64,000 nt of DNA from Erysipelotrichaceae bacterium (GTDB lineage: Bacteria > Bacillota_I > Bacilli_A > RFN20 > CAG-449): the NCBI GenBank assembly GCA_015059045.1, contig SVBD01000001.1, positions 135,876 through 199,875 on the forward strand, given 5' to 3'. The notes beneath the pieces are model-generated. The model searched no databases and was not told where the DNA came from. It was given only the letters and a program-made list of their open reading frames with translations. The position numbers and the translations under genes are program-made. Shown one piece after another: positions 42,988-58,914 of this stretch (position 1 is its first letter; every line of letters starts with the position of its first letter).

Positions 42988-43829
42988 TAATAAATTATTT
43001 TAATTTCTGTTTCAATAAATAATCCGATATTATTATATAATACTTCTTGTATCCTTTCAATTAATTTAACTAGATTTAGAATATCTAAATCTTTTCTCAA
43101 CTCGATAAAATTTTTATGAGTTTGACAAATAGAATATCCATTATATTCAGTAAAGTTTACATATTTATCAATCAGTTGATAAACTTTTATATTACTTAGA
43201 TTTTTAAATGTTGATCCTAAGCTATGAATTTGAGGCTGATTTTTTATTCGATAATTGATTGCAAGCAATTTATTTTTCAATAATTCATTAAAGCTTTTTC
43301 TTTTTACTTTAAATATCGCTTTATAAATAAAATAACCTTCATCTAATATTTTTATATTAATTTTACGGTAATTTAATTCTACTTCCTCTTTTTTTATAAT
43401 TCTAAAATTACCCTGTTTATCTATTATTAAAAGATATAATAAATTATCTGATATACATTGATCTAAAAAAGATGCATTATTAAAGATACTACCACCTAAT
43501 AAACCTGGAATTGTCATTAATTTTTCAAATCCTGAAATACCATTATTATTACATATATTACCCAGTATGCTTAGCGGCATACCAGAATCGACTACAATTA
43601 AATTTTTATATATTTTCATTTCTTTAGAAATGAACTTAATAATTTTGATTTCTTTATATTTGAAGCAAAATAATGTTTTGGAGGTATTACCTATAAATAA
43701 ATAACCACCTTCTTTTATAATGTTTTTAATCAAAGCAATTGAAGTAGTTTCTATATAAAATTTACATATGGCATCATTTTTAGCGTATGAAATTTCCTTT
43801 AAATTATATTCTCTTTGATAATTAATCAT
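42987..43829 (-). CDS. murB: UDP-N-acetylenolpyruvoylglucosamine reductase MurB-like
   Basis: 280 aa; FAD-binding region resembling MurB ([15 protein letters not shown]). Confidence 0.55.
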
Positions 43830-44418
43830 TTTCTACCTCATTAATTATTTTATCAATTGGATTAATATCAATTTTATATGTGTTTTTTCTTTTCATTGAA
43901 ACAATATGCGCCTCAATATTTTCTTTTGTAAAATCCTTTTCTTTAATTATCGAAATATATTTTTCAAAATATTTTGCATTTTTTTCTTGATGATTGTTTT
44001 TAACATATGGAGAAGGAATACAAACTATTTCTACACCACTTTTTAATACTTCTAATAATGTAGTTGCACCAGCTCTTGTAAATACTAAATCATAATATTC
44101 TAATTCGTACTTCATATTAATTTTTGATTTTACTTTAATATATATTGGGTTTTTATCTCTTAATTCTATAAAACTATTTTGTTTGCCTGATGAACGTCCA
44201 TTTAAAGGGAAAAATAGGTGACAATAATGAGTAGCGTCCTTTTCTATAGCCCATATTTTTATAGTATTTGCTATTATTTCTATAGCGTTATTAGATAATT
44301 CAAGATAATTATCTTTACACTTAATAAATTCTAAATAGATTTCTTTTGGAAATCTTCTTTTCATTTCTTCATCATTAAAAGTATTTTCACCATACATGCT
44401 TAATAATTTATTTTTCAT
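43822..44418 (-). CDS. Glycosyltransferase family 28 C-terminal domain protein (MurG C-domain only)
   Basis: 198 aa; [42 protein letters not shown] matches the MurG C-terminal UDP-GlcNAc-binding region; the N-terminal half of MurG is absent. Confidence 0.55.
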
Positions 44419-44427
44419 GTTTACCTC

Positions 44428-45236
44428 CTAAAATAAGATAATTAATATAATTGAAGCAAAAGATAATACTAACCCAACAATGAAAAAATACATTACAATT
44501 TGGTATTCTTTAAATCCTTTTAATTCTAAATGATGATGAAAAGGTGCCATCAAGAATAAGCGTTTTTTCGTTAATTTAAAAAAACTAACTTGAAGTATCA
44601 CACTTAATGTTTCAAAAATAAATAAACCACCACTAATTAAAAGAAATATTTCTTTATGCAATATAATTGCACTTATCCCTAATAACAATCCTAAAGATAA
44701 CGATCCAGAATCACCCATAAAAATTTTGCTAGGATGGAGGTTAAAACTTATGAATCCTAAAGTCGCACCAAAACTAGAAATCAATAAATATGTTAGGTAA
44801 TATTCCTTTTCAATTAAAGAAAATAAGATAAATGGAATAACCGCCAATAAGTATAAAGAGGAACTTAATCCATCCAATCCATCAGTTAAATTTACGCTAT
44901 TAGAACATCCAACTAAAATAAATGGAAACAAAATAAATATATATTTACCAATATTGATTTTATAATCATTTAATAAATTAATATTTTCAAATAAATAATG
45001 CTCTTGAAGATAATATAAACATATCAATGATAATACTAATTCTAAAAGAAATCTGATTATCGAAGGAATTCCATGATAATCTTTAAATTTAACTTTAATC
45101 AAATCATCAACTAATCCTATCAAGAAAAATGAAGTAATCATAATTATTATTACTTTAAAATAACTATAATTATAATATTGATAATATAAGATAGTAGTAA
45201 ATAAGACACTAATGATAATAGCAACACCCCCTAAAG
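44428..45236 (-). pseudogene. mraY: mraY 3' fragment (about 268 codons), separated from its 5' end by the inserted element
   Basis: The frame is open from 44428 up to a TAA created at the element boundary (45237..45239); it encodes SLGGVAIIS...DGLDGL...MGDSGS MraY motifs; the track ORF begins at an internal Met. Confidence 0.85.
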
Positions 45237-45246
45237 ATGGTGCAAC
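45223..45246. other. Left attachment junction (attL-like): host half-site, AAAG direct repeat, then element terminal IR GGTGCAACTTAGGGATTT
   Basis: The host mraY reading frame stops here; base composition switches sharply; the 18-bp IR matches the right end in 17/18 positions. Confidence 0.7.
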
Positions 45247-45306
45247 TTAGGGATTTACGAAAAACAGTAAATTTTTGAGCGACACCTTCAAGCGGGGCAA
45301 ACAAGT

Positions 45307-45353
45307 AAAGACCACACATAAGGATAAAACCTTGTGTGTGGTCTTTCTTTTTG
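45307..45353. terminator. Strong hairpin terminator at the left inner end of the element
   Basis: Perfect 12-bp stem AAAGACCACACA/TGTGTGGTCTTT with a T-rich tail; lies just 3' of the last cargo gene. Confidence 0.6.
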
Positions 45354-45356
45354 CGT

Positions 45357-45635
45357 TTAATCTTCTCCTGTGAGCAACATCACATCAAGCATCGTTCTTG
45401 CACCGAGCCGAAACGCATACACGAATATTGCCTCTTCTGCAAGGCTGGCGTATTCACTCCAACAATCATCGAACCGTTCTAAAATATCACGTTGCTCATC
45501 GGTCATTGCTTTTAGTAGGTCTTCGTGATGCCGAGCCATATACTCCATTAACTGCTTCATCTCGGGAGTGTTGTTACGGCTATCCGATTGCGGATTTATA
45601 TTGCCGTGCCACAATTCTGCAAGCGTATTTTTCAT
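45357..45635 (-). CDS. Hypothetical 92-aa acidic protein (last gene of the cargo operon)
   Basis: Start reassigned to MKNTLAELW, which has an AAGGAGGTG RBS; no recognisable domain. Confidence 0.5.
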   Translation of the reverse strand: MKNTLAELWHGNINPQSDSRNNTPEMKQLMEYMARHHEDLLKAMTDEQRDILERFDDCWSEYASLAEEAIFVYAFRLGARTMLDVMLLTGED

Positions 45636-45722
45636 ATGCACACCTCCTTGTAGCACAACACTATACCACAGGTCTGCGCATAAGTCCAGATAACAAATTG
45701 TGAACGAAACTTTGCCGCAGAG

Positions 45723-47051
45723 TTAGTTTTCTAAAGAGGCTGAAATATAATTTATACCTTCCAAAAAATAGAATTTGGAAAACTTATCTTTTCCCGCTAT
45801 TGGGCGGAATGTAATTTTTATATTTTTCTTTTTTCTCTTTTTTTGTTTTTCAACCGATTCTGCGTTATTTACTTTTGCATCTTTATAAACAATAATATAT
45901 TTTTCTGCTGAAAATCGTTGACCATGTAATGTAATGCCTAGAACTTTACCTTCAACAGCTATTTCGGAAGAAAGGGGTTCTTCTGCAAAGTCATCTGGTA
46001 TTCGGTCGTAATCACAGCGGGTTTCATCGCAAAAATTCGTTTTTACATGATGCCACTTTCCTACTAATGAAGAAGCTAGGATATATGCAGCTCTATAATC
46101 GCTTGTGTATACATCTCCAATACTAATATCAAATTTGCAACCAGTATGTTTTTCTATTGTAAGAAGGTTTTCAATGTAAGCAATAAGATGAGGGGCATTT
46201 TTAAACATTGGCGCCGACAATTCATTTTCATCCAATGTTGCATTTAACAACTCTTTGTCTCCAATCTTGATGGAAAGTTGCTTTGTTTTACCGATTTCAT
46301 TAATGAGCCGTTCACGAGCTAATTGTACATTCAAATCTAACGACGGAACTTTAGTAATATTAAAATCTGTGCGTGCTACATTATCATAAGCGGTAATTGA
46401 AAAATCAAATCCTTGCCCATTAGAAATTGTGCCAAATATCATTTTCCCATACTCAAGACATGGTTTTCTCCTCAATTGAATTTCGATGATTATATTACCC
46501 GATTGGATTGTGGCGGATACGGCAGGTGGAAACTCCGGTGCACCGATTATAGTTATCATTCCATCACGATATTCCATGTTAGGAAAAGGGTCTTCGATTT
46601 CGCCAAGATATTCTCGGTACGCTGTCGTTTTAAGCTCAACCCTTGTTTGTGTTCTATATGCATAATCCCATGGGGTTTCGGACTTACTCATATGAGGATA
46701 CTTTTTGTAGTCAATTTGATAGGTTCCCTTGATTTTTTTGGGATATTTAGATAATGCATCCGCTGTTTCGGGAGTGCTCACCAAGCGCCCTAAATCAGCG
46801 TTGGGTTTTACTGTAAAATCGGGATACAGTGGGTGAACTTTTTTGGCGGCAGAAAGAAAGTCCGTAAACTGTCTTTGAATAATATCATACTTTCCTATCT
46901 GACCGAGGATCGAAATCATTTCTGGCGTATTATTGCAGAAAACAGGAGACTCAACCGTGCTATCCTGAATAACGACATTGTGATTAGAATTTCTGCCGAT
47001 AGTTGAATTGTTTGATGAAGATTTTTTCCAAAACATAGTCTCTCCGTTCAT
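45723..47051 (-). CDS. Hypothetical 442-aa cytoplasmic protein (candidate effector)
   Basis: ORF with GC-rich codon usage; no Walker A and no TM helix; start codon overlaps (ATGA) the upstream 52-aa TM ORF. Confidence 0.5.
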   Translation of the reverse strand: MNGETMFWKKSSSNNSTIGRNSNHNVVIQDSTVESPVFCNNTPEMISILGQIGKYDIIQRQFTDFLSAAKKVHPLYPDFTVKPNADLGRLVSTPETADALSKYPKKIKGTYQIDYKKYPHMSKSETPWDYAYRTQTRVELKTTAYREYLGEIEDPFPNMEYRDGMITIIGAPEFPPAVSATIQSGNIIIEIQLRRKPCLEYGKMIFGTISNGQGFDFSITAYDNVARTDFNITKVPSLDLNVQLARERLINEIGKTKQLSIKIGDKELLNATLDENELSAPMFKNAPHLIAYIENLLTIEKHTGCKFDISIGDVYTSDYRAAYILASSLVGKWHHVKTNFCDETRCDYDRIPDDFAEEPLSSEIAVEGKVLGITLHGQRFSAEKYIIVYKDAKVNNAESVEKQKKRKKKNIKITFRPIAGKDKFSKFYFLEGINYISASLEN

Positions 47052-47206
47052 TTTTTCACATCACTGTTTTGTATTACTGTATTTCCATCACCTTTGATTT
47101 TTGCTTTTGCTTTGGATTTTCTTTCTATTGTTTTACCTGTAAAGAGACCTGCCACAAAGGTTGCTATAGGGAGCGCAACATCAATAAGCCAAAATTTCCA
47201 ATCCAT
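47048..47206 (-). CDS. 52-aa single-pass membrane peptide, translationally coupled to the 442-aa ORF
   Basis: Encodes MDWKFWLIDVALPIATFVAGLFTGKTIERKSKAKAKIKGDGNTVIQNSDVKK; one TM helix and a basic C-tail; absent from the track because it is under 60 aa. Confidence 0.45.
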   Translation of the reverse strand: MDWKFWLIDVALPIATFVAGLFTGKTIERKSKAKAKIKGDGNTVIQNSDVKK

Positions 47207-47224
47207 TTTAATTCACTTCCTTTG

Positions 47225-47722
47225 TTAATTTTTAGGAATTAGCGTCCGAAAATCAATCCCGTTTGCGCTTGTATCCCATTTTCCTACTTGCATTTGTTTT
47301 ATACGCTTACCGTCACCGAAATCAAGCAAGTCGAGCCTATTGAAATTGTTGAGAATCTTATTCAAACTACCGAGCCCCGCAGAAGACAACAAAAATGCTT
47401 CTGCCGGATCGCACAATTTACAATACGCCCATAACTGACCCAAGTCGTGGAGATTTAACTGTGTTTTCTTAGCTTCTATAAAAACAATGCTTGTCTTTTT
47501 ACCCTTTATGATTATACCGAGAACATCAATTTGAATATCCAAACCCACGGTTTGTGGATAATTGTCTATGACTCCGTATTTCTCAAGAAAAAGGTCGAGA
47601 GTTTGCGCATGAGAGTCAACAGTGATTATTGTTGCCCCCGGATATTTTTCTTCCAAATACGTTTGAAGCCAACACCGCATCGGCTCATATAACTCAAATT
47701 CTTTTTTTACATTATTCGCCAT
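47225..47722 (-). CDS. PD-(D/E)xK-like nuclease candidate (165 aa)
   Basis: Residues D...GLDIQIDVLG...IVFIEAKKT form a D/(D/E)xK pattern typical of the restriction-endonuclease fold; 11-nt overlap with the upstream gene. Confidence 0.4.
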   Translation of the reverse strand: MANNVKKEFELYEPMRCWLQTYLEEKYPGATIITVDSHAQTLDLFLEKYGVIDNYPQTVGLDIQIDVLGIIIKGKKTSIVFIEAKKTQLNLHDLGQLWAYCKLCDPAEAFLLSSAGLGSLNKILNNFNRLDLLDFGDGKRIKQMQVGKWDTSANGIDFRTLIPKN

Positions 47723-48584
47723 AACCTAAGAACCTCGCCAAATCTGTCCAAGAGTCAAAGTGCTTTCCACGAATTTCTTCGGGCAAACTATGGTCGTGCT
47801 CACCAGGATGAAGGGGCTTGCTTGCGCGTTTAACAGTTTTTTCCCAATAGAATTTATGGGTTTTAACTGGGTCGATAAACTCTAAAAGTTCTTCGCTGTA
47901 TTTCTCAAGAGCATCCTGCTTGTGTTTAATGTTGAATCCGACGGCAAGGAACTCATTAGCAAATATTTTAACTTGATGTTCCTTTTTCCAAAAGTTCGGT
48001 TTGCCTTCGTTGTATTTTACTAGCTTTCCGTCTCTAAAGTTGGGATGACCGAAATCAATAGTTTGTACGGGAACATCAATATCCTTGAGCATATTTGCGA
48101 TGTCGATAACCATATACCAATTTCCGGGGATTTCAATATAAACTCTGTGCGCACCGTCTTGACCGAACGCAATATTGCTTTTTCTTATGTATCCTGTAAC
48201 GTCTGCGATTCCTCGAAGCAACGCACGCTTTTGGTCAGAAGTTATAGAAAACAGCTCTGGGTTCATTCTCATAGTTGAATGATGTCTGCCACCGCCAATG
48301 AGACGTATGATTTCTCTCATAACGTATTCATCGTTGGGTTTTGTGAACGAGAGCTTCGTCGAATGGGGCGCTTCAGTAACAACCAAATTGTGCCCAATCA
48401 AAGGCTCTACTATAGAACGAATATCAACAATACTAGCCTTTACATATATTGCGACATCTTTCAAATCGTCCGTGTATAAATTTTTATAAGGAATATCTAT
48501 GGTAACGGTTGTGGTGCTAGTTCCTCTTTGAATTTCACCGTTGCCTAATATCATTCCGAGTAAATATGACATTTCTGCATTCAT
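47712..48584 (-). CDS. Hypothetical protein with two LAGLIDADG-like segments (290 aa)
   Basis: Start reassigned to MNAEMSYLLGMILGNGEIQ, which has an AAGGCGG RBS; a second segment ALLRGIADVTGYI lies about 120 aa downstream; canonical catalytic Asp not conserved. Confidence 0.3.
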   Translation of the reverse strand: MNAEMSYLLGMILGNGEIQRGTSTTTVTIDIPYKNLYTDDLKDVAIYVKASIVDIRSIVEPLIGHNLVVTEAPHSTKLSFTKPNDEYVMREIIRLIGGGRHHSTMRMNPELFSITSDQKRALLRGIADVTGYIRKSNIAFGQDGAHRVYIEIPGNWYMVIDIANMLKDIDVPVQTIDFGHPNFRDGKLVKYNEGKPNFWKKEHQVKIFANEFLAVGFNIKHKQDALEKYSEELLEFIDPVKTHKFYWEKTVKRASKPLHPGEHDHSLPEEIRGKHFDSWTDLARFLGYGE

Positions 48585-48600
48585 AAATATTACCGCCTTA

Positions 48601-49329
48601 TTAAAGATTATATCCGCGTTCAAATTCTGCTTGATAACCTCTATCAATCGCTAGTTTGCGGATTTCAGTTGTGTTTTGTATATCACCAAACCTAAAACCA
48701 TACCTCTCAACAAGAGTAAGAACAAATTTTGACTTATTAATTCTGCCGACACAAGAACCATTTCCTGCGCCCATATTATCTCTTAAAATTTGAGGACAAT
48801 TCCGCAAGCTGGAAAAATTAATTCTAAATTGAGGGCTTAATTTGTTTGGCATTCCACTCGGTGTATCTCCCATAGTGATAGGACGATAGGTCTGTCCGGG
48901 GAAAAGTTCCTCAAAAATATCATCTCTTCCATCCATAGGAACTTCTGCTTCAATTGAACCAATTCTGCCGGGGCGAGCCATATATCCTACCAACTCATAC
49001 ATCTGCTGTTCGTTTCTGACAGCTATAGTCTGCGAACGAGGTCCCAACAACGAGGATGCTGCACGTCCTTGAGAAGAAAACATTTTTGTTGGCTGAATAG
49101 CCTGAGCAGGGTGCGTTGCCGCCGTAGGGGGTGTGGTTAAAACGACTTCCTTGTTAGCTTCATTTACAATGTTTTGAAGTTCGGCGTCAAAAATGGTAAA
49201 GAATTTATCAAATCCTTTTACCAAGAATGTTTTTTCAGCCGTTTCAAATTTGACTTTGATTTGTCCGTTAGCAACAGAGGTAACGATACCATCACCGAAA
49301 ACACGGTGTTTTACTTTATATGCTGACAT
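48601..49329 (-). CDS. Hypothetical protein (242 aa), directly downstream of the MTase
   Basis: ORF abuts the MTase stop; N-terminal small domain, Pro/Ala/Thr-rich linker and a C-terminal domain; no known motif. Confidence 0.45.
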   Translation of the reverse strand: MSAYKVKHRVFGDGIVTSVANGQIKVKFETAEKTFLVKGFDKFFTIFDAELQNIVNEANKEVVLTTPPTAATHPAQAIQPTKMFSSQGRAASSLLGPRSQTIAVRNEQQMYELVGYMARPGRIGSIEAEVPMDGRDDIFEELFPGQTYRPITMGDTPSGMPNKLSPQFRINFSSLRNCPQILRDNMGAGNGSCVGRINKSKFVLTLVERYGFRFGDIQNTTEIRKLAIDRGYQAEFERGYNL

Positions 49330-51441
49330 TTATTTTGCCCCCAATATTTCATAAATTTGGTCTGAGATGGCTTTTGCCATTAAAGGCGGAACAGCATTGC
49401 CTATTTGAGTGCGAATATAAACCTTCGAGCCGATAAATACAAATTTATCATCGAAAGACTGTATTCTAGCCGCTTCACGAGGTGTGATTGCTCTGTGCAA
49501 GAAAGGGTGATTGTTCGTACCGTTGGATGAGGCATCGAAGCGTGTATCAATTGTTGGTGATACAGCATCCCACTTCAAACGTCCCCAAGTACCGCTAAAC
49601 TGTTGTTTTCCGGTTAATTCATCAGGGAGATACTCTTTTCCGCATTCTGGTGGAATCATTTGCAATTTTCTTATTGCAATTTCCGCATGATTAGAAGCCT
49701 TGTGATTATAGAGTTTTTTGCTGCCTTGGCGCATCATTCTTTGATAATCACTTGTGGGCTCGGTAATATATTCTTGTTCAAAATCTCCTTCATTTGAGTT
49801 TAAGTATGCTAAATCATATATAGCATCTCTTACAGTAACGGGAGTAACACAAGTTGGCAACGGCAACGGCACTTTTTTTCTTTTAGAGCATATAAATATT
49901 GCTCTTTGCCGTGCTTGAGGAACACCAAAATCGGATGCGGTCAAAACACCGTAAGACACGGTATAGCCCATTTGCGATACCTTTTCAACAATTTGGTTTT
50001 TGAACCATCCCGCAGAGGTTGACAATAAAGCTTTTACATTTTCAATAACAAATACTTCGGGTTGGAGAATTGAAACTATATTTAAATATTCATTGAATAG
50101 GAAGTTGCGAGGGTCATCTAAACCGAGTTTTTTGCCTTTAAGAGAAAAACCTTGACAAGGGGGACCACCAATAATCATATTGACATTCCTTGCCTTGCTC
50201 AATTCGATAATCCGCTCGCGCACTTTGCTATCAGTGATATCACCCGAAACAACTTCCGTTTGAGGCATATTATATTTAAATGTCTTCAGGGCTTGTTCGT
50301 TAAAATCTAATGCCACAGACGTAGTAAAATGCTCGTTTTTTTCCATGCCATATGACATTCCGCCTGCACCGCTAAATAAGTCCAAAATGCGGAATTCACT
50401 AATTTCGGGATTGTTAAGTCTTCTATTGCGTATCAAAATCCTTTTGAAAACTTCCTTTCCGTTAATTGTTGGCTTAAATAAATCGTATTCATTATCAGAA
50501 CCGTGATTTGCTTCACCTACAATTTCAAATTGTTCGCTGTTATATCTATTGACTATAGTAATAGGAACAGCCATAATACCGGGGTAATCATACGGAATAT
50601 CTGTTATAGTTTTTACGTGAATTGCATCGTAATTATCGTATTTAGGATATTCCTCGGGCGTATACTTCTTGGTCAACGGCAACTCGGTATGTCTTCTATC
50701 ATTATCGAGATTGGTGAGCCACATAGCGTTTCCAAGACTACGCCATTTTTGACCGCTCTCATCAACCCAATATCTTGTTGAGCGCGGTTCAGATGATTGC
50801 GGTACACGGAATTTCATTTCTCCAAATTGATATCCCGTCCATACTTCGTTATTCTGAATTAAAGGAAAAATTTCCTTATATGTAAGAGCATTTTGATTTC
50901 CAATCAGCAAAAAGCTCTTTTTATATTTCATAATTTCAGCTACAATTTCTTTAAATAATGAAAAAGGTGGGTTTGTAACAACAATATCACATTCGCGTAA
51001 ATATTTAATACACTCAGGACTTCTAAAATCTCCATCACCCTTGAGTTTTTTAATTATGCGACTGCCCGAAAGGAAACGCGAAACAAAATCATCTGAAAGT
51101 TCTTCTTTGCCTTCGCCAATTTCTTTTACATCGAGAACATATCCATTATCTGCGCATAAAGGTTCATTCTCGTCATCAAATAAACTTAATTGTGTTGAGA
51201 CAACCTTTGAGGAACGATATGACGTGCATATCAAACGCTTTAGCTGAAGTTTATTAAAGTTTCTTAAAAAGAATTTACAAAAATTAGATTCAAAGGGGTC
51301 ATCACAATTACATAAAACGGTTTTTCCATAAAACTGCTCCGTATAATGGAAAACCTCAGCTTCGATGGTTTCATATGTTGTATAGAATTCATCGTCCCTT
51401 GCGCGTTTTGCCGCTTGAAGGTTCGTGTTCTTATTTCCCAT
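49330..51441 (-). CDS. Fused DNA methyltransferase: N-terminal amino-MTase-like domain plus C-terminal C5-cytosine MTase
   Basis: N-terminal half contains DIVVTNPPFS, the motif IV of N6A/N4C MTases; C-terminal half contains LFSGAGG (motif I), GGPPCQGFS (motif IV), ENV (motif VI), QARQR (motif VIII) and GNAVPP (motif X); AGGAG RBS. Confidence 0.85.
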   Translation of the reverse strand: MGNKNTNLQAAKRARDDEFYTTYETIEAEVFHYTEQFYGKTVLCNCDDPFESNFCKFFLRNFNKLQLKRLICTSYRSSKVVSTQLSLFDDENEPLCADNGYVLDVKEIGEGKEELSDDFVSRFLSGSRIIKKLKGDGDFRSPECIKYLRECDIVVTNPPFSLFKEIVAEIMKYKKSFLLIGNQNALTYKEIFPLIQNNEVWTGYQFGEMKFRVPQSSEPRSTRYWVDESGQKWRSLGNAMWLTNLDNDRRHTELPLTKKYTPEEYPKYDNYDAIHVKTITDIPYDYPGIMAVPITIVNRYNSEQFEIVGEANHGSDNEYDLFKPTINGKEVFKRILIRNRRLNNPEISEFRILDLFSGAGGMSYGMEKNEHFTTSVALDFNEQALKTFKYNMPQTEVVSGDITDSKVRERIIELSKARNVNMIIGGPPCQGFSLKGKKLGLDDPRNFLFNEYLNIVSILQPEVFVIENVKALLSTSAGWFKNQIVEKVSQMGYTVSYGVLTASDFGVPQARQRAIFICSKRKKVPLPLPTCVTPVTVRDAIYDLAYLNSNEGDFEQEYITEPTSDYQRMMRQGSKKLYNHKASNHAEIAIRKLQMIPPECGKEYLPDELTGKQQFSGTWGRLKWDAVSPTIDTRFDASSNGTNNHPFLHRAITPREAARIQSFDDKFVFIGSKVYIRTQIGNAVPPLMAKAISDQIYEILGAK

Positions 51442-51468
51442 TTTTATCTCCTAATAATGGTTAAATTT

Positions 51469-51678
51469 TTAATTGTTGTCGGGTATGACTTCCATAATGT
51501 CTCCGACATCGCATTCCAATGCTTGACATATTCTCACAATCACTTCGGTATTAACATTTTCATCGTGACCGAGCTTTGCCATTGTACCTCTGCTTATACC
51601 GGTAGCAGCAATAAGGTCTTTTTTCTTCATTTTTTTATCAATTAGCAATTTCCATAGTTTGTTATAGCAAACAGCCAT
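51469..51678 (-). CDS. XRE-family HTH regulator (C-protein-like controller and/or element repressor)
   Basis: 69 aa from the ATG MAVCYNKLWKLL, which has a GAGGTG RBS; HTH segment DLIAATGISRGTMAKL; 27 bp upstream of the MTase and divergent from the primase gene. Confidence 0.7.
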   Translation of the reverse strand: MAVCYNKLWKLLIDKKMKKKDLIAATGISRGTMAKLGHDENVNTEVIVRICQALECDVGDIMEVIPDNN

Positions 51679-51879
51679 ATCGCACCTCAAATAAAATTTT
51701 TGTTTTAGATATTATATCACAGATAGCAAGAAAAGGCAATATATTTTACTAAAATTAAAAGCATTTTTGTCAAAGGCTTTTGAAAAATGTTCATATTTGT
51801 AGACTTTTTCTAAAGTGCCATCCGTTCCTTCCGGGGAGCGGATTTTTTATTTTCTGAAGATTTTTCAAAAAGGGGCTTA

Positions 51880-52460
51880 AAAAATGTCGTTTTCGTGAGC
51901 TACCTATGAGGAAAAATTTATGCAAAGGGGGTTAACTTTTGCCGTTTTCGTGACCTACCAGTAGAGGAAAAAAATTATTTTTGCTAAACCCTTCAATTTT
52001 TTCCATTACCGAGGCTTGTATATGAGAGGCGGAAAGATTTATAAACTTTTTTTCAAAAAGCGGACCAAAGCCGATAAAAATCTCCAACCAGGTAGTGAGG
52101 AGAGAAAAATTATCTTTTTTTCGTAAAAGCGGACCAAACGGCATTTCATTTTCCAGCCAGGGGATGAAGAGAGAAAATATTAAGATTTTTCTCGTTTCGG
52201 TGGAAAAACGACTCTCGATTCTCCAACAGGTGGTGAAATGGAAAATATTTTTTGAAGATTTTTCGGAAAACTCCCCCCCCAATATGCCACTCAAATCTCC
52301 GTATAACGAAAATCGAAAAATTTTTTTGAAAAACGGGTCCCCAATAAGCCCTCCAAATCTCCGTATAACGAAGGCGGTAAAAATCATTTGTTTTTTTTCG
52401 ATTTTCACGATTTGGTGGAAAAACGGCTTTCCATTTTCCAACTGGGGAGTGAAGGCACCC
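51880..52460. repeat. Array of about 8 degenerate direct repeats (period about 65-70 bp; iteron-like) in the 840-bp non-coding region upstream of the primase-helicase gene; putative replication origin
   Basis: Recurring cores TCTCCAACCAGGTAGTGAGGAGAGAAAAATTA, TTTTCCAGCCAGGGGATGAAGAGAGAAAATATTA, TTCTCCAACAGGTGGTGAAATGGAAAATATTT, TTTTCCAACTGGGGAGTGAAGG, plus two copies of AAATCTCCGTATAACGAA and two of CGTTTTCGTGA(G/C)CTACC; a C8 tract at 52273..52280. Confidence 0.7.
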
Positions 52461-52528
52461 AACAACCAAGAAAGGAGGTACACCGATGAACACAACGCTT
52501 ACAACAAAAATGAAAGGAGGTCGATACG

Positions 52529-54820
52529 ATGCAGGATTTTATGGCGGAGCTGAAAGCAATGTCCATATGGTTTCATTGGCATTGGGAACAGGATAAGAAC
52601 GGACGGCAGACCAAAGTGCCTCACGCAGCAAGAGGCGGCGCAACCGGAACTTCCGAGCAGTGGGCGCATACGTGGGTCACATATGAAGATGCACTTGCCC
52701 TGAAAGATGAGCAACACGCCTCGGGGCTTGGCTTCAAGGTACCTGATGGCTACTTCTTTCTTGATGCCGATCATTACGGACTTGAAGATCCCTTTATACA
52801 AGTGCTCCTTGAACGCTTCAATTCATATACGGAACGTTCGGTCAGCGGCGGAGGCATCCACATCTACGGCAGATGCGATGTCGGAAAGCTACCCATTGTT
52901 ACCGATAAAAACGGAAAGCAAAAGCTCGACGGCGCATTCTACGTAAAAAATCCCGGCAACCGCCTTGAACTTTATATCGGTGATCTTACCAACCGCTTTG
53001 CCGTATTCACCGGAGACGTGGTATGGGAGCAACCTCTTAAGGAATGCACCAATGCCGTGCTTACAACCCTCGATAAAAATATGCGCCGATCCGAAAAGAA
53101 GAAGTACAGCGAAAGCCGTGATGGGGACAAGGTTACCTTTGACCTCATATGCAATCTGCGAAAGCAGAAGAACGGAGATAAATTTCGTAAGCTCTTCGAT
53201 GACGGCGATATCAGTGACTACGGTTCTCACTCTGAAGCCGATGCCGCCCTGTGTGCCTTGATAGCCTTTCGCGCCGGGGATGACCCCGAGATGATTGATA
53301 TGCTCTTTCGACAATCAGCTCTCTATCGTGAGAAGTGGGAGCGTGATGACTATCGGAGTGCCACTATCAACATCGGCATTCGTGCCTGCAACGGAGAGTA
53401 TCACCGCTCCAAAATGCCTCATCCGTATTTTATCAAGTTTGACGATGATGGAATTCCTCACATTTGCGTTCCACTCCTTGCCAAATACGTGCGAGAGCAT
53501 CTTTGCTATCTGCTTGTCCGTGATAACGGCAAACAAGGACTCCTTCGGTACGTTTACGATGAGGACGGATGCTACCGCTTATATTCCTCGGATATGTTCC
53601 TCGGGGCAATCAAACGGTTTATTGCCGACTATGATGAGGAGCTTGTAAAAATGAGCAAGGTCAATGAAGTCTTACAGCACATCAGCACCGACCTCAACTA
53701 CATCAGCCAAGAGGAGCTTGACAGTAATGAGAGCATCATCAATTTCAAGAACGGCTTGCTGCAAGTAACAGAGACGGACACAACGCTCCTTATGCATACT
53801 CCCGAGGTCATCTCTACCATACAGATTCCGTGCGAGTGGCGTGGGCATCCGACCCCAACACCGGTATTTGACCGTTATATGCATACCCTCACCAACGGAG
53901 ATAAAGCCACCGAGGAACTTCTCCTGCAGTTCATAGGCGCGTGTATTTCCAATATAAAAGGATGGCGAATGAAAAAATCCCTCTTCCTTGTGGGTGACGG
54001 CAATACGGGTAAATCACAGCTCAAAAGCCTCGTGGAGCGGTTGCTCGGCAAAGGCAACTTTATCGGTATCGACCTCAAAGAGATCGAGGCTCGGTTCGGC
54101 ACGGGTGCTGTATACGGCACTCGTCTCGCAGGTAGTTCAGATATGAGCTTTCTCACCGTGGACGAGCTTAAGACCTTTAAGAAAATGACGGGCGGTGACA
54201 GCCTTTACGCAGAGTTCAAGGGTCAGCAAGCCTTTGAGTATACCTACGGCGGGTTGCTTTGGTTCTGTATGAATCGCTTGCCGAAGTTCGGAGGTGACGA
54301 TGGGCAATGGGTATATGACCGCATTATGGTCGTCAACTGTCCCAACGTGATACCGAAGGACAAGCAAGACAAAAAGCTCCTCGATAAGATGTATGCCGAG
54401 CGTGAGGGCATCGTTTACAAAGCTGTAAAAGCCTTGCAGACCGTTATCGCAAACGGCTATAGGTTCTCCGAGCCTGAATCCGTAAGCCTTGCACGTGAGC
54501 GTTATATGAACGAGAACAGCACGGTGGTCTCCTTCTTTGAGGAGTGTATGTGTCCGCTCCCCGGCGGCAAAATCAATCCCCATTGTACTACCGGGCGCAT
54601 CTTCCGTGTGTACCAGGCTTGGTGCTTTGAGAACAACCACGGCTATGCAAAGTCAGCCAAGGAGTTCCGAGAGGAGCTTGCCGACTACCTCGGTACTACT
54701 CATGCTGATATGACTATGCGCCAAAAAGGAAACACCTACTACCGCGAGTACACGCTTACGCTTGAAACCAAGGAGCAATATTCAAGGGAGTACGGCTTTG
54801 ATACCACGGAGTTCTTATGA
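52529..54820 (+). CDS. Replication primase-polymerase/SF3 helicase (phage/plasmid P4-family primase, D5-like)
   Basis: 763 aa; N-terminal prim-pol motifs (FFLDADH, SGGGIHIY); C-terminal SF3 helicase Walker A GDGNTGKS; AAGGAGG RBS. Confidence 0.8.
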   Translation: MQDFMAELKAMSIWFHWHWEQDKNGRQTKVPHAARGGATGTSEQWAHTWVTYEDALALKDEQHASGLGFKVPDGYFFLDADHYGLEDPFIQVLLERFNSYTERSVSGGGIHIYGRCDVGKLPIVTDKNGKQKLDGAFYVKNPGNRLELYIGDLTNRFAVFTGDVVWEQPLKECTNAVLTTLDKNMRRSEKKKYSESRDGDKVTFDLICNLRKQKNGDKFRKLFDDGDISDYGSHSEADAALCALIAFRAGDDPEMIDMLFRQSALYREKWERDDYRSATINIGIRACNGEYHRSKMPHPYFIKFDDDGIPHICVPLLAKYVREHLCYLLVRDNGKQGLLRYVYDEDGCYRLYSSDMFLGAIKRFIADYDEELVKMSKVNEVLQHISTDLNYISQEELDSNESIINFKNGLLQVTETDTTLLMHTPEVISTIQIPCEWRGHPTPTPVFDRYMHTLTNGDKATEELLLQFIGACISNIKGWRMKKSLFLVGDGNTGKSQLKSLVERLLGKGNFIGIDLKEIEARFGTGAVYGTRLAGSSDMSFLTVDELKTFKKMTGGDSLYAEFKGQQAFEYTYGGLLWFCMNRLPKFGGDDGQWVYDRIMVVNCPNVIPKDKQDKKLLDKMYAEREGIVYKAVKALQTVIANGYRFSEPESVSLARERYMNENSTVVSFFEECMCPLPGGKINPHCTTGRIFRVYQAWCFENNHGYAKSAKEFREELADYLGTTHADMTMRQKGNTYYREYTLTLETKEQYSREYGFDTTEFL

Positions 54821-54828
54821 CCCCTTGG

Positions 54829-54958
54829 GTAGCAGAGGTAGCAGTAGTAGCAGTTTCAAAATCTTCTCAGCAAAATTCAAAAAACTTTATAAGTAGGTGT
54901 GTAGGTAGAAAGAAGATATAAAAATCTGTCAGCAGAATTGAAATTACTGCTACCTCTG
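54829..54958. repeat. 17-bp inverted repeat pair (GGTAGCAGAGGTAGCAG / CTGCTACCTCTGCTACC) separated by about 95 bp, just 3' of the primase gene
   Basis: Seen directly in the sequence; an additional GTGTAGGTAG/CTACCTACAC pairing; a possible 14-codon leader ORF (MIVFTDAEGPVKSL) with a strong RBS follows. Confidence 0.5.
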
Positions 54959-55134
54959 CTACCTACACGAAAGGAGGTGGTGCCTATGATTGTGTTTACC
55001 GATGCCGAGGGCCCGGTCAAATCTCTGTGACTAAAAATACGTACAGCGGGCAAGGGCTTTCACGCGCAAAAATTCGAATTCAAACGGGGTATTAACCCCT
55101 AATTCAAACATTCATCAAGAAAGGAACAATTATT

Positions 55135-55416
55135 ATGAAATTTAAGCCTATTTACAACAAAAAATTCCGTGTTTCCGCATCGGACAGAGATGCATTCTCG
55201 ACCAAGGACTACACCTGTATGTTCATTCTGCAGACGATGAAGGGAAAGCCCGTGGCGGTGTCGAGGGCAAACGACCCGGATTTGCTCATTTGGAGAGTGC
55301 AGTACGGCTTTTCTACCATCTACTTCGCTGACTATGCCGAAGCGATGGATTTCTGCCGTGAGCATTTTTGTGACCTCGACGGCAAGAAGCTGAAGAAGGC
55401 AAAGGAGAAGAAATAA
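55135..55416 (+). CDS. Hypothetical protein (93 aa)
   Basis: ORF in the element's GC-rich codon usage; first of a small operon. Confidence 0.4.
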   Translation: MKFKPIYNKKFRVSASDRDAFSTKDYTCMFILQTMKGKPVAVSRANDPDLLIWRVQYGFSTIYFADYAEAMDFCREHFCDLDGKKLKKAKEKK

Positions 55417-55709
55417 TGTTTCGGCTTTCAAATTATTTTCAGAAGCATTTGAAAGGATATATAGATTTCGATGCCTTCGTTCTTATTGCCGTTATTCCCC
55501 GTAGAAAGAAGTCTGCGGTAGTGCTTCTCGCACCGAAATACGAGCGCGAATATTGCTACTTCGCATTACAATGCGGAAAAGAAAACAGCTATCATTCGTC
55601 TCTCGACAATATGCTGAAAGCCGCCCATAAGAGTTACGGAATCAGCAAATTCAAGCTGTGGCGTTGTCGCAAACGTTATGAACGTTTCAAAAGGAGTGGT
55701 CGCATATGA
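55416..55709 (+). CDS. Hypothetical basic protein (97 aa)
   Basis: ORF; ATGA overlap with the upstream gene. Confidence 0.4.
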   Translation: MFRLSNYFQKHLKGYIDFDAFVLIAVIPRRKKSAVVLLAPKYEREYCYFALQCGKENSYHSSLDNMLKAAHKSYGISKFKLWRCRKRYERFKRSGRI

Positions 55710-55987
55710 AAAGATATTATCCTCTCATTGATATGGATACAACCGGGACGATAAAGGTGCCGATGTTTCCTGCCAATGATTACAAAAAAGCATTACGGAG
55801 GAGTAATTTTGCTCTCGGAGAGGTTACCCGTAACCGCTACCGCTTGATTGCCGTGACTCCTCATGCTATGAGAGATTATCTCTCTTACGACATCCGTTGT
55901 CCCAAGTGCGGTGCGACAATGGATGTAACCGAACCGCACGAAGGTGAGTATGTTCTCGGAGAATATACTTGCGAAAACTGTCAATAA
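55706..55987 (+). CDS. Hypothetical zinc-ribbon protein (93 aa)
   Basis: CPKCG...CENC four-Cys arrangement at the C-terminus. Confidence 0.4.
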   Translation: MKRYYPLIDMDTTGTIKVPMFPANDYKKALRRSNFALGEVTRNRYRLIAVTPHAMRDYLSYDIRCPKCGATMDVTEPHEGEYVLGEYTCENCQ

Positions 55988-56007
55988 AATTTTGGAGGTA
56001 TAAAACT

Positions 56008-56946
56008 ATGACGATTGACGCTATTAAAGAAAGAGACTATGCCTTGGCTATGTCCGAATACGATTATGCGTTTTGGAATGCCGTAAAGCGCAAACCCCAC
56101 AATGCCCAGGAATTAAAAAAAGGTATTTGGGCTGAAAACGCATATCTTCCGCTTGGAGGAAATTTAAAAATGACCGCTGCCCTCAAGAGAGAAAGCGTAT
56201 TCCGTTCACTCGCTACCATTGCATATTTGAGAGATCCCGGCGGTATCGTTCTCGCAAAGCATTGCACCACAGAGAGCTGTTGGGTGCCCGAACACGGAAT
56301 GTATACCTTTACCCAGGGCGAAGGTGAATTTACAAATTACAATATCAAAGCTCATAAGCTCGGAGCTCTTCTCAAGTACGATGAGGTGTTTATGACAGAT
56401 ATCGGTCTTGATATGGAAAATCATCTGATCGACAGCATTGCAAAGAGTTTCGGTGCGATGGAAGATGCCGCTTATGTAAACGGCACGGGAGATATTCAGC
56501 CCACCGGTATTCTCCATAACACACGTGGTGCGCAGATTGGAGCAACTACTGCGGCTCTCACTTATGAGGATGTAGTCAAGCTCTACTTCTCGGTCAAGCC
56601 TGAATATCGCAAGCATGGGACTTGGATGATGAACGATGAGACCGCATACTATCTCCGCACTCTCAAGGATGAAGGCGGCAACTACATTTGGAATCATACC
56701 AACGATACCATTCTCGGCAAGCCTGTACGCATTTGCAATGATATGCCGAGCATCGGTGCCGGAAACAAGCCTATTGCATTCGGAGATTTCTCCTACTATT
56801 GGATTATTCTCCGTGATGACGTAAGTATCAATATCCTCAAGGAGCTTTACTATGATATGGGGCAGGTCGGCTACATCGCCCGTGAATATCTCGATGCAAA
56901 GCTTATCCGTCCCGAGGCAATTAAGGTCATTCGGATGACCGAGTGA
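56008..56946 (+). CDS. Phage major capsid protein, HK97-fold family
   Basis: Start at MTIDAIKERD, which has a GGAGG RBS; C-terminal ILGKPVRICNDMP...IAFGDFSYYWIILRD region is characteristic of HK97-type capsid proteins. Confidence 0.6.
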   Translation: MTIDAIKERDYALAMSEYDYAFWNAVKRKPHNAQELKKGIWAENAYLPLGGNLKMTAALKRESVFRSLATIAYLRDPGGIVLAKHCTTESCWVPEHGMYTFTQGEGEFTNYNIKAHKLGALLKYDEVFMTDIGLDMENHLIDSIAKSFGAMEDAAYVNGTGDIQPTGILHNTRGAQIGATTAALTYEDVVKLYFSVKPEYRKHGTWMMNDETAYYLRTLKDEGGNYIWNHTNDTILGKPVRICNDMPSIGAGNKPIAFGDFSYYWIILRDDVSINILKELYYDMGQVGYIAREYLDAKLIRPEAIKVIRMTE

Positions 56947-56956
56947 GGACGAGCCT

Positions 56957-57124
56957 ATGGAGAAAACCAAGGAATGCTCTCATAAGACCGAAACCGTTAT
57001 TGACGGCACGGTCTATATCGTGGAATCGGTGAGTGCCGAATCCGCCAAGGACGTGGTGTACGGCAAGGTGAAAAAGCTCATCCTTGACCACGCAAAGTTA
57101 TCCGTAAGTTCACAAGCATCATAA
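56957..57124 (+). CDS. Hypothetical small protein (55 aa) upstream of the recombinase
   Basis: Encodes MEKTKECSHKTETVIDGTVYIVESVSAESAKDVVYGKVKKLILDHAKLSVSSQAS; not in the track because it is under 60 aa. Confidence 0.35.
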   Translation: MEKTKECSHKTETVIDGTVYIVESVSAESAKDVVYGKVKKLILDHAKLSVSSQAS

Positions 57125-58876
<1,752 letters not shown>

Positions 58877-58888
58877 CCCAGGGATTAA

Positions 58889-58914
58889 AAATCCCTAATT
58901 TGCACCCACAAAAG
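58889..58914. other. Right attachment junction (attR-like): element terminal IR AAATCCCTAATTTGCACC followed by the AAAG direct repeat
   Basis: Mirror image of the left end; host mraY coding resumes immediately on the minus strand. Confidence 0.7.

Follow-up and report, generated by a model that had tools for sequence, protein, structure and literature searches.

The question raised by this locus is whether a short membrane peptide and the genes next to it, at the end of the cargo operon of an integrative element, form one defence or addiction system, and by what means such a system would act. The DNA analysed (the window) is a 64-kb stretch of a metagenome-assembled genome of an Erysipelotrichaceae bacterium; all window coordinates refer to this stretch, and the module genes lie on its minus strand. 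A preliminary description had grouped three open reading frames (ORFs), for a 52-amino-acid (aa) peptide, a 442-aa protein and a 92-aa acidic protein, into a three-gene sub-module, possibly a second system independent of the restriction-modification (RM)-like genes beside it, and all three ORFs were present on the minus strand (Table 1). The reading favoured here, with about an even chance of being right, is that of a two-gene abortive-infection-type cassette in which an AbiGii-like sensor is coupled by motif pairing to a membrane-peptide effector, the whole being carried as cargo by a serine-recombinase element.

Since ORFs of this size are common at the locus (36 of 30 aa or longer within 4.5 kb), the presence of the 52-aa ORF by itself proves nothing. 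A profile of the peptide, however, retrieved 126 homologue clusters, nearly all of 50-70 aa and never named beyond 'hypothetical protein', and the ratio of non-synonymous to synonymous substitution rates (dN/dS) was 0.09-0.21 in the comparisons with unsaturated dS. Because of these homologue clusters, the low dN/dS and the fixed position upstream of the large gene, the ORF was taken to be a real gene under purifying selection, which speaks against the earlier proviso that it might not be translated. Its strong ribosome-binding site (RBS; AAAGGAAGTGA) lies 18 nucleotides (nt) past the stop of the upstream 165-aa gene. The exact peptide sequence was present in JGI, ENA and Logan and had no NCBI accession in the source genome, consistent with the ORF having been missed by the annotation track, and no family match to it was found in Pfam, PADLOC, NCBIfam or PHROGs. 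One further member listed in the peptide cluster, P0369 (317 aa), is unrelated to the peptide in sequence, looks like a clustering artefact and was set aside.

A single hydrophobic segment was identified in the peptide, with a 19-residue Kyte-Doolittle mean of 1.83 over residues 5-23, and an AlphaFold2 model placed a helix at residues 3-31 with a predicted local distance difference test (pLDDT) score of 91-96 at residues 1-20. An aromatic cap, MDWKFW, stands ahead of the helix, and a GxxxG pair lies within it, G20 being invariant and G24 kept in at least 90% of homologues in the family alignments. The isoelectric point (pI) is 9.9 and the tail is rich in Lys and disordered in the model (pLDDT ~50); the hydrophobic segment, the helix and the basic character together bear out the original view of a single-pass membrane peptide with a Lys-rich tail.

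The start of the large gene was re-examined using the family alignment, in which homologues begin at a Met aligned with M6 of the 442-aa form. As this alignment, the NCBI call of a 437-aa form (MBE6131928.1) and the GGAGAG RBS all agree, the true start is probably the ATG at 47036. The ATGA overlap from which translational coupling to the peptide had been proposed (47051..47048) does exist in the sequence, but its ATG is probably not the real start. Fusion of the two frames by a -1 frameshift on the A-run at the ATGA junction was also considered and rejected, because a good RBS precedes the second ATG and other loci show 6-22-nt spacers or different overlaps.

The large protein contains no transmembrane segment in its sequence, as expected of the soluble protein first described, and was matched by the PADLOC AbiGii model with an E-value of 1.4e-13 (residues 120-431, aligned with positions 66-356 of the 378 in the profile), leaving its first ~120 residues, including the motif described below, outside the AbiGii models. 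It had no match in Pfam, NCBIfam or PHROGs and no sequence match in the PDB, and Pfam AbiGii_2 was matched by 5 of 30 family members (best 7.5e-8). Close homologues (n=97, 39-96% identity) were unnamed or 'hypothetical' and came from Clostridia gut metagenomes, while a family-profile search of 1.84 billion representatives yielded 297 relatives, among them a remote class of ~425-445 aa named by NCBI 'abortive infection system toxin AbiGii family protein' (up to 4e-13). These profile matches show the large protein to be a distant homologue of AbiGii that lies outside the curated Pfam boundary. No housekeeping homologue was found, the relatives being AbiGii-like, and the likeness to abortive-infection arrangements suggested at the outset is upheld by this homology.

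The AlphaFold2 model of the large protein had a pLDDT of 85.6, with low confidence at residues 1-40. Many polar residues (H73, E125, R133, Q135, E147, R195, E247) are invariant. A polybasic patch (KQKKRKKKNIKITFRP; residues ~408-423, 45783-45830, minus strand), with the consensus KNxKKKKKNILITFRP, might bind anionic lipids or nucleic acid. Nearly all relatives of ~425-445 aa bear an N-terminal G-(D/N)-x-phi-Q-(N/D)-(S/C) motif, which is absent from a class of ~570-590 aa (P0138, P0145, P0148 and others); these carry instead a helical N-terminal extension of ~175-200 aa, opening with a conserved hydrophobic segment, x-Y/F-I/L-A-x-L-G-L-D-A-x-K, and matching nothing in Pfam. This extension may be a fused effector domain, an 'all-in-one' counterpart of the split peptide. 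In one further relative, P0162, a transmembrane helix is fused directly to an AbiGii-like domain. Given P0162 and the ~570-590-aa class, fused and split forms coexist, as they do in NLR/effector systems. On plasmid pA of Peribacillus sp. R9-11 (L038), the AbiGii-like gene is N-terminally truncated, beginning at an HPYYP motif, and the motif and the upstream peptide are both absent, so that it is apparently a decayed copy.

Pairing of the two genes was assessed in the loci that retain the 5' end of the large gene plus upstream DNA. Every such locus had a peptide ORF, giving 32 distinct peptide/protein pairs across Clostridia and Bacilli, in each of which a single-helix ORF of 50-71 aa lies directly upstream at a spacing of +22 to -32 nt. 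When divergent peptides were looked up, each was followed by an AbiGii-like gene of ~435 aa without Pfam matches. The pairs include those of Geobacillus pBt40, Terribacillus pDMT04 and Brassicibacter mesophilus; in tblastn searches of the relatives against plasmids, matches were confined to Bacilli. Two of the three RefSeq/GenBank records examined leave the peptide unannotated. On Geobacillus genomosp. 3 plasmid pBt40 (NC_022092.1, L019 3802-3990) an ORF for a 62-aa transmembrane peptide, unannotated in RefSeq, lies upstream of the hypothetical protein WP_020961672.1 and is adjoined by a type I RM system; on Terribacillus pDMT04 its 67-aa counterpart does carry an annotation.

The flanking genes vary. 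Upstream neighbours are RM components (types I, II and III) in ~10 of 17 contexts, and TIR, KAP NTPase, HipA-like and CBASS genes were found among the others. In Brassicibacter mesophilus (L045 214-4326) the pair lies directly downstream, on the same strand, of two CBASS-like genes, for a SAVED-domain protein and a DncV-like cyclase. By these gene neighbourhoods, the peptide and the large protein are a self-contained mobile cassette, which behaves as an autonomous defence-island module and is independent of the RM-like genes beside it in the window. The suggestion of an independent second system thus holds for the two-gene cassette, which is found behind varied RM and defence genes elsewhere, but not for the 92-aa gene, which does not belong to it.

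The central finding is a motif that the two products have in common: in all 32 pairs it is borne by the last ~15 residues of the peptide and by residues ~18-33 of the large protein. In the latter, N25 is invariant and I18, S22 and Q29 are nearly so. The window pairs the tail KGDGNTVIQNSDV with the N-terminus NSNHNVVIQDSTV. Elsewhere the tail KIGHHSNNNNVNINS stands with WIGSHSNSNQVNINS in L011 (VNINS in both), AKSKIGNNSNNNIVNQN with AKAKIGNHSNNNQVNQN in L041 (VNQN in both), KINQKGNNNNAYVNSTIINY with TINQKGNRNIAIQNSHITIY in Geobacillus L019 (INQKGN in both), GNNNVAHSGTTINY with GNGNVAFQNTTVNIY in Terribacillus L037, and NKNVQKNGNVFGDAIVANTI with NKIIQKNGKVFGDAIVANEV in L046 (QKNGxVFGDAIVAN in both). 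Local alignment of each tail to the N-terminus of its own partner gave a mean score of 45, against 22 +/- 6 for shuffled N-termini. Among 15 lineage representatives the mean was 52.4 for cognate and 33.7 for non-cognate combinations, a result reached by none of 100,000 permutations; the motif therefore co-varies between lineages, partner with partner. The two motif regions are conserved and yet predicted to be disordered, as expected of segments that fold on binding. In the window the two copies are identical at 14 of 30 nt, and since only one of the six identical residues has a common codon, the match is held at the protein level; recent gene conversion as the sole cause of the likeness was rejected for the window on these two counts.

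The favoured reading starts from what the analysis showed, namely gene pairing, purifying selection, AbiGii homology, a transmembrane helix, the co-varying motif and neighbours that are mostly defence genes, and in it the cassette would work as follows. The peptide would have a very short N-terminus outside the cell, one helix with the GxxxG pair, a Lys-rich juxtamembrane segment and, at the end of its disordered cytoplasmic tail, the motif G-x-N-x-V-I-Q-N-S-x-V, which is also present in the disordered N-terminus of the large protein. The AbiGii-like protein would act as sensor; its trigger, if lactococcal AbiG is a guide, would be a phage structural protein. Once activated it would expose or cluster its N-terminal motif, which would pair strand-to-strand with the matching peptide tail; the transmembrane helices would then assemble, and the membrane would be permeabilised or depolarised as the killing step. 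The infected cell would halt growth or die ahead of the release of phage progeny. Judged by its genes and their company, the cassette is probably anti-phage. A bolder version, which we put forward tentatively and regard as rather unlikely, holds that the matched motifs are a new bacterial amyloid-like pair acting by cross-beta templating, the AbiGii-family sensor templating the peptide tail into a lethal membrane oligomer.

Several observations weigh against the sensor-effector reading. The hydrophobic segment of the peptide is only moderately hydrophobic and holds a conserved Asp and a conserved Pro. In the core clade that includes the window, cognate motif pairs rank only 10-13 of 15; they are not distinctive there because the motif is nearly fixed, and the co-variation rests on the divergent lineages. 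At least two of the divergent pairs have motif copies that are also close at the DNA level (L046, 50 of 60 nt; L041, 53 of 75 nt), so a recent duplication on the spot or gene conversion, and not selection, may account for part of the matching, which is plausible for these two loci. AbiGi, the partner expected of an AbiG system, was not found in the six other proteins of the operon (PF10899 in Pfam, the PADLOC AbiGi model, NCBIfam and PHROGs), and the window protein had no Pfam AbiGii_2 match even at E=10. The structure search that had been proposed alongside the remote-homology search returned no neighbour of the large-protein model in the PDB or BFVD. Because the fold has no solved or viral neighbour, a biochemical activity cannot be assigned to the protein, and it might itself be the effector.

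This last point is the core of the best-placed alternative, which we consider unlikely: the peptide would be an anchor that tethers the AbiGii-like protein to the inner face of the membrane, and the large protein would both sense the signal, for example incoming tail or DNA-injection components, and carry the toxic activity, the tail binding the N-terminal motif or the same pocket. In its favour, P0162 is a natural helix-AbiGii fusion, so that what counts may be bringing the large protein to the membrane; the invariant polar residues are possible active-site residues, the region near the C-terminus has a conserved polybasic patch, and Pfam and NCBI label AbiGii as a toxin. However, that label is a computational guess and no catalytic fold was found; a simple tether has no obvious need for a conserved GxxxG or for a motif on both partners; and the remote class of long relatives replaces the motif by its N-terminal domain of ~175-200 aa rather than by a transmembrane helix.

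Quite unlikely, in our judgement, is an addiction or toxin-antitoxin system in which the peptide is a membrane toxin of a type I-like class restrained by the large protein through its tail, or the reverse, and whose main task would be to keep the mobile element and the RM genes it carries stable, not to detect phage. In its size, its one helix and its basic tail the peptide resembles small membrane toxins, the genes are as tightly linked as their spacing implies, the pair occurs on mobile elements and plasmids, and Pfam describes AbiGi and AbiGii as an antitoxin/toxin pair. Against this, a scan of positions 45000-52600 found no Rfam family match and no antisense RNA partner, the antitoxin would be ~8 times the size of the toxin and highly conserved, which is unusual, and the pair is also found in chromosomal defence islands beside other abortive-infection-type systems. 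A system may, however, behave as a toxin-antitoxin pair and act by abortive infection as well, since neither excludes the other.

A role outside defence, which we hold to be distinctly improbable, would make the pair responsible for some other membrane function of mobile elements, such as the exclusion of related elements, with the motif as a relic of the partial duplication of a once-fused gene. The high DNA identity of the motif copies in some loci fits a duplication, no relative turned up in viral contigs when IMG/VR was scanned using two remote members and the family alignment, and the AbiGii fold has no characterised neighbour. Yet both partners have kept the motif throughout Clostridia and Bacilli, many loci showing diverged codons, the pair stands consistently among RM, TIR and CBASS genes, and homology ties the large protein to a proven family of abortive-infection proteins (PMC12184496).

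The grouping originally proposed, with the 92-aa acidic protein as a third component, for example a neutraliser, is hardly credible: its gene has the same orientation, lies 87 nt downstream of the large gene without an intervening terminator and is collinear with the pair in one other contig (L001, ~72% DNA identity to the window, behind a different RM system), but comparative genomics contradicts membership, DUF6809 following the module in L001 only, one of ~30 other loci. The protein is indeed acidic (pI 4.63) and its gene has the good RBS (AAGGAGG) first reported. Remote-homology searching identified it as DUF6809 rather than as a third component or neutraliser, with a full-length match to PF20648 (E=5.4e-23; 82.1 bits, the gathering cut-off being 27; residues 1-85 on profile positions 1-85 of 85). 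In L009 a DUF6809 gene lies upstream of the module on the opposite strand, and all other loci are without one. At 90% identity, the DUF6809 protein falls in a cluster of 214 members (Christensenellales and other Clostridia), versus 7 for the large protein, and module-free copies occur in the virome contigs L043 (MT835887.1, 15.9 kb) and L044 (MT836114.1, 12.9 kb). The gene also has its own RBS and a promoter-like site, the latter a consensus match only, in the 87-nt gap ahead of it. As it is rare at module loci and common elsewhere, DUF6809 was assigned to the backbone of the mobile element, and its distribution indicates that it is not a part of the module. The DUF6809 proteins of the two virome contigs, which are from human gut and near the size of the window element, show 60% (L043) and 40% (L044) identity to that of the window, and L044 also has a primase N-terminus in common (30% identity), a hint that elements with a DUF6809 gene are packaged into particles like those of satellites.

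The strong terminator described after the 92-aa gene proved to be a hairpin of 17 pairs, but it scores as a terminator on the plus strand only, where its tail is CTTTTTGCGT; the minus-strand tail, ACTTGTTTG, has a weaker U-run. The hairpin is possibly a bidirectional terminator.

The carrier element was delimited from the window composition, in which a block of 35-49% GC interrupts host DNA of 21-30% GC, and from its junctions, read from the sequence. It splits the host mraY at TPT|LGG codons with a TT crossover, leaving minus-strand fragments at 44428-45233 and 58913-~59050; the 5' part terminates in ...KKLTPT|FVGAN* and the 3' part restarts at LGGVAIIISVLF, and the putative TT crossover lies in ccccgacTTtgtggg (attL) and caccatcTTtaggggg (attR). 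As mraY is normally essential, there are three ways to account for the insertion: a gene that no longer works in this genome, an element carried by only some of the population, or a second copy of mraY. Please refer to Table 1 for the features of the cassette and of the element.

Table 1. Positions of the cassette, its sequence elements and the surrounding integrative element in the window.
Feature	Position	Strand	Basis and remarks
52-aa peptide gene MDWKFWLIDVALPIATFVAGLFTGKTIERKSKAKAKIKGDGNTVIQNSDVKK	47048..47206	-	ORF; proposed effector or anchor
RBS of peptide gene AAAGGAAGTGA	47213..47223	-	Read from sequence; 6 nt before ATG
Transmembrane helix, peptide residues 3-31	47114..47200	-	AlphaFold2; hydrophobic core, residues 5-23
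Tail motif KGDGNTVIQNSDV, peptide residues 38-50	47057..47095	-	Three family alignments; N42 invariant, Q46 nearly invariant
AbiGii-like soluble protein gene	45723..47051	-	442 aa from first ATG; 437 aa from ATG 47036
RBS GGAGAG of AbiGii-like gene	47040..47045	-	Read from sequence; 5 nt before second ATG (47036)
N-terminal motif IGRNSNHNVVIQDSTV, residues 18-33 of large protein	46953..47000	-	Alignment
92-aa acidic DUF6809 gene	45357..45635	-	ORF; extends to GTG 45656; beside left attachment site
Promoter-like site TGGACT, 17-nt spacer, TG-TATAGT	45660..45688	-	9/12 consensus matches, extended -10
17-bp hairpin	45307..45346	.	Closes left end of element
Three orphan ORFs (242, 311, 165 aa)	47225-49329	-	Between methyltransferase fusion and module
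Operon headed by EcoRI-type N6A + C5 methyltransferase fusion	49330..51441	-	
Prim-pol/D5-like helicase	52529..54820		In element
Phage_capsid-family protein	55969..56946		In element; Pfam 1.8e-57
Large serine recombinase	57143..58852		In element
Integrative element, ~13.7 kb	~45234..58912		Inserted in host mraY; GC, split mraY frame, TT crossover, Pfam matches

The products of the three orphan ORFs had no credible match in Pfam, PADLOC, NCBIfam or PHROGs. By eye, a PD-(D/E)xK-like D...FIEAKK pattern was noted in the 165-aa protein and two LAGLIDADG-like segments (LLGMILGNGE and LLRGIADVTGY) in the 311-aa protein, and an unusual RM system may have its nuclease component in these two and the 242-aa protein. 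The methyltransferase operon and the prim-pol/helicase gene are separated by ~1.1 kb of non-coding DNA, in which degenerate direct repeats of 55-70 nt (51850-52450, 71-82% identity) form an array. This array is a candidate iteron-bearing replication origin, and the ORFs listed over it are probably repeat artefacts. In the flanking host DNA a 198-aa ORF (43822-44418, minus strand) encodes a chimeric protein that joins the N-terminal domain of a type III glutamine synthetase (1.3e-20) to the C-terminal domain of MurG (4e-16). It stands directly after mraY, at the place expected for murD, ftsW and murG, and the host dcw cell-wall cluster looks rearranged or decayed.

The consequence for annotation is that a widespread branch of the AbiG superfamily always travels with a micro-peptide that often goes unannotated: PADLOC and Pfam detect just one of the two genes, small ORFs slip past current models, and DUF6809 should not be annotated as part of such systems. 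What appears to be new is an AbiG superfamily with a different partner, the micro-peptide, and with a motif-pair architecture, which the literature searched does not describe for this superfamily. The matching end motifs give a testable model of motif-mediated coupling of sensor to membrane effector and with it a route into AbiG, a classic abortive-infection system. If this were confirmed, the end-motif design of fungal and actinobacterial NLR systems and of Bab/Agp would apply in gut Firmicutes as well, and with a sensor other than an NLR. If the amyloid version were true, the peptide would be the smallest known amyloid-controlled cell-death executioner, the pair the first such system in Bacillota, and the motif the first mechanistic handle on the AbiG family, whose mode of action has been a question since 1996.

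Comparison with known systems places the cassette between several of them. Type I toxin-antitoxin membrane toxins and holin-like peptides are likewise small membrane peptides, and a basic, single-helix peptide of ~50 aa such as this one could depolarise a membrane as they do; unlike the type I toxins, it has no antisense RNA that could be found, and it comes with a conserved structured partner and a C-terminal motif. In the fungal HET-S/NWD2 pair, an executioner that inserts into the membrane is controlled through a motif at its C-terminus, for which the homologous motif at the N-terminus of the receptor, encoded by the adjacent gene, acts as template. Fused ('all-in-one') and split architectures exist there as well, with parallels here in P0162 and the ~570-590-aa relatives; however, HET-S/NWD2 is eukaryotic, is built on a 21-residue beta-solenoid repeat and a HeLo domain, and has no sequence relationship to the cassette.

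AbiG of Lactococcus plasmid pCI750, composed of AbiGi and AbiGii, resembles the cassette in that the large protein is homologous to AbiGii and that both are two-gene cassettes on mobile DNA. It is an abortive-infection system triggered by the major tail protein of phage p2 (PMC12184496). AbiGi and AbiGii have no solved structural neighbour according to a 2026 review of lactococcal Abi systems (PMC13064643), a feature that the window protein has in common with them. The difference lies in the partner, which is here a 52-aa membrane peptide and not AbiGi; no AbiGi Pfam match was found among the neighbours in any related locus.

The pattern of an effector C-terminus matching a sensor N-terminus was first defined for Bell-domain/NLR pairs (bioRxiv 10.1101/2020.01.06.895854). 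Bab/Agp of E. coli ECOR25 is an amyloid-signalling abortive-infection system. Its effector, of 109 aa, begins with a hydrophobic helix and ends in a motif, and it is activated when the sensor encoded next to it presents the corresponding motif at its own N-terminus, with membrane damage as the outcome (bioRxiv 10.1101/2024.11.07.622273). The cassette differs from Bab/Agp and the BASS systems in that its peptide consists of just a transmembrane helix and a tail and lacks a globular domain of the Bell, HeLo or Babybell type, and in that its hosts are Bacillota, in which Bell-domain/NLR-like architectures are rare or absent (bioRxiv 10.1101/2020.01.06.895854). Its large protein, AbiGii-like and not an NLR, lacks the sensor-domain Pfam match required of BASS sensors. 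The motif differs from RHIM, PP and BASS3 in having a (T/V)-V-I-Q-(N/D)-S core (phi-phi-Q-(N/D)-S), with a polar residue after Q and no flanking glycines; RHIM-like membership was rejected, the G-phi-Q-phi-G core (bioRxiv 10.1101/2020.01.06.895854) being absent. Because both this core and the Bell domain are absent, the cassette was not filed in the BASS or RHIM families. It nevertheless has in common with Bab/Agp and BASS the adjacent genes, the small effector with an N-terminal hydrophobic helix beside a larger sensor, a motif of 11-30 aa in which the effector C-terminus equals the sensor N-terminus and which is closer within than between pairs, an invariant Asn in that motif, and a setting in defence islands or mobile elements. 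Judged by anatomy, Bab/Agp is the closest mechanistic counterpart of the cassette.

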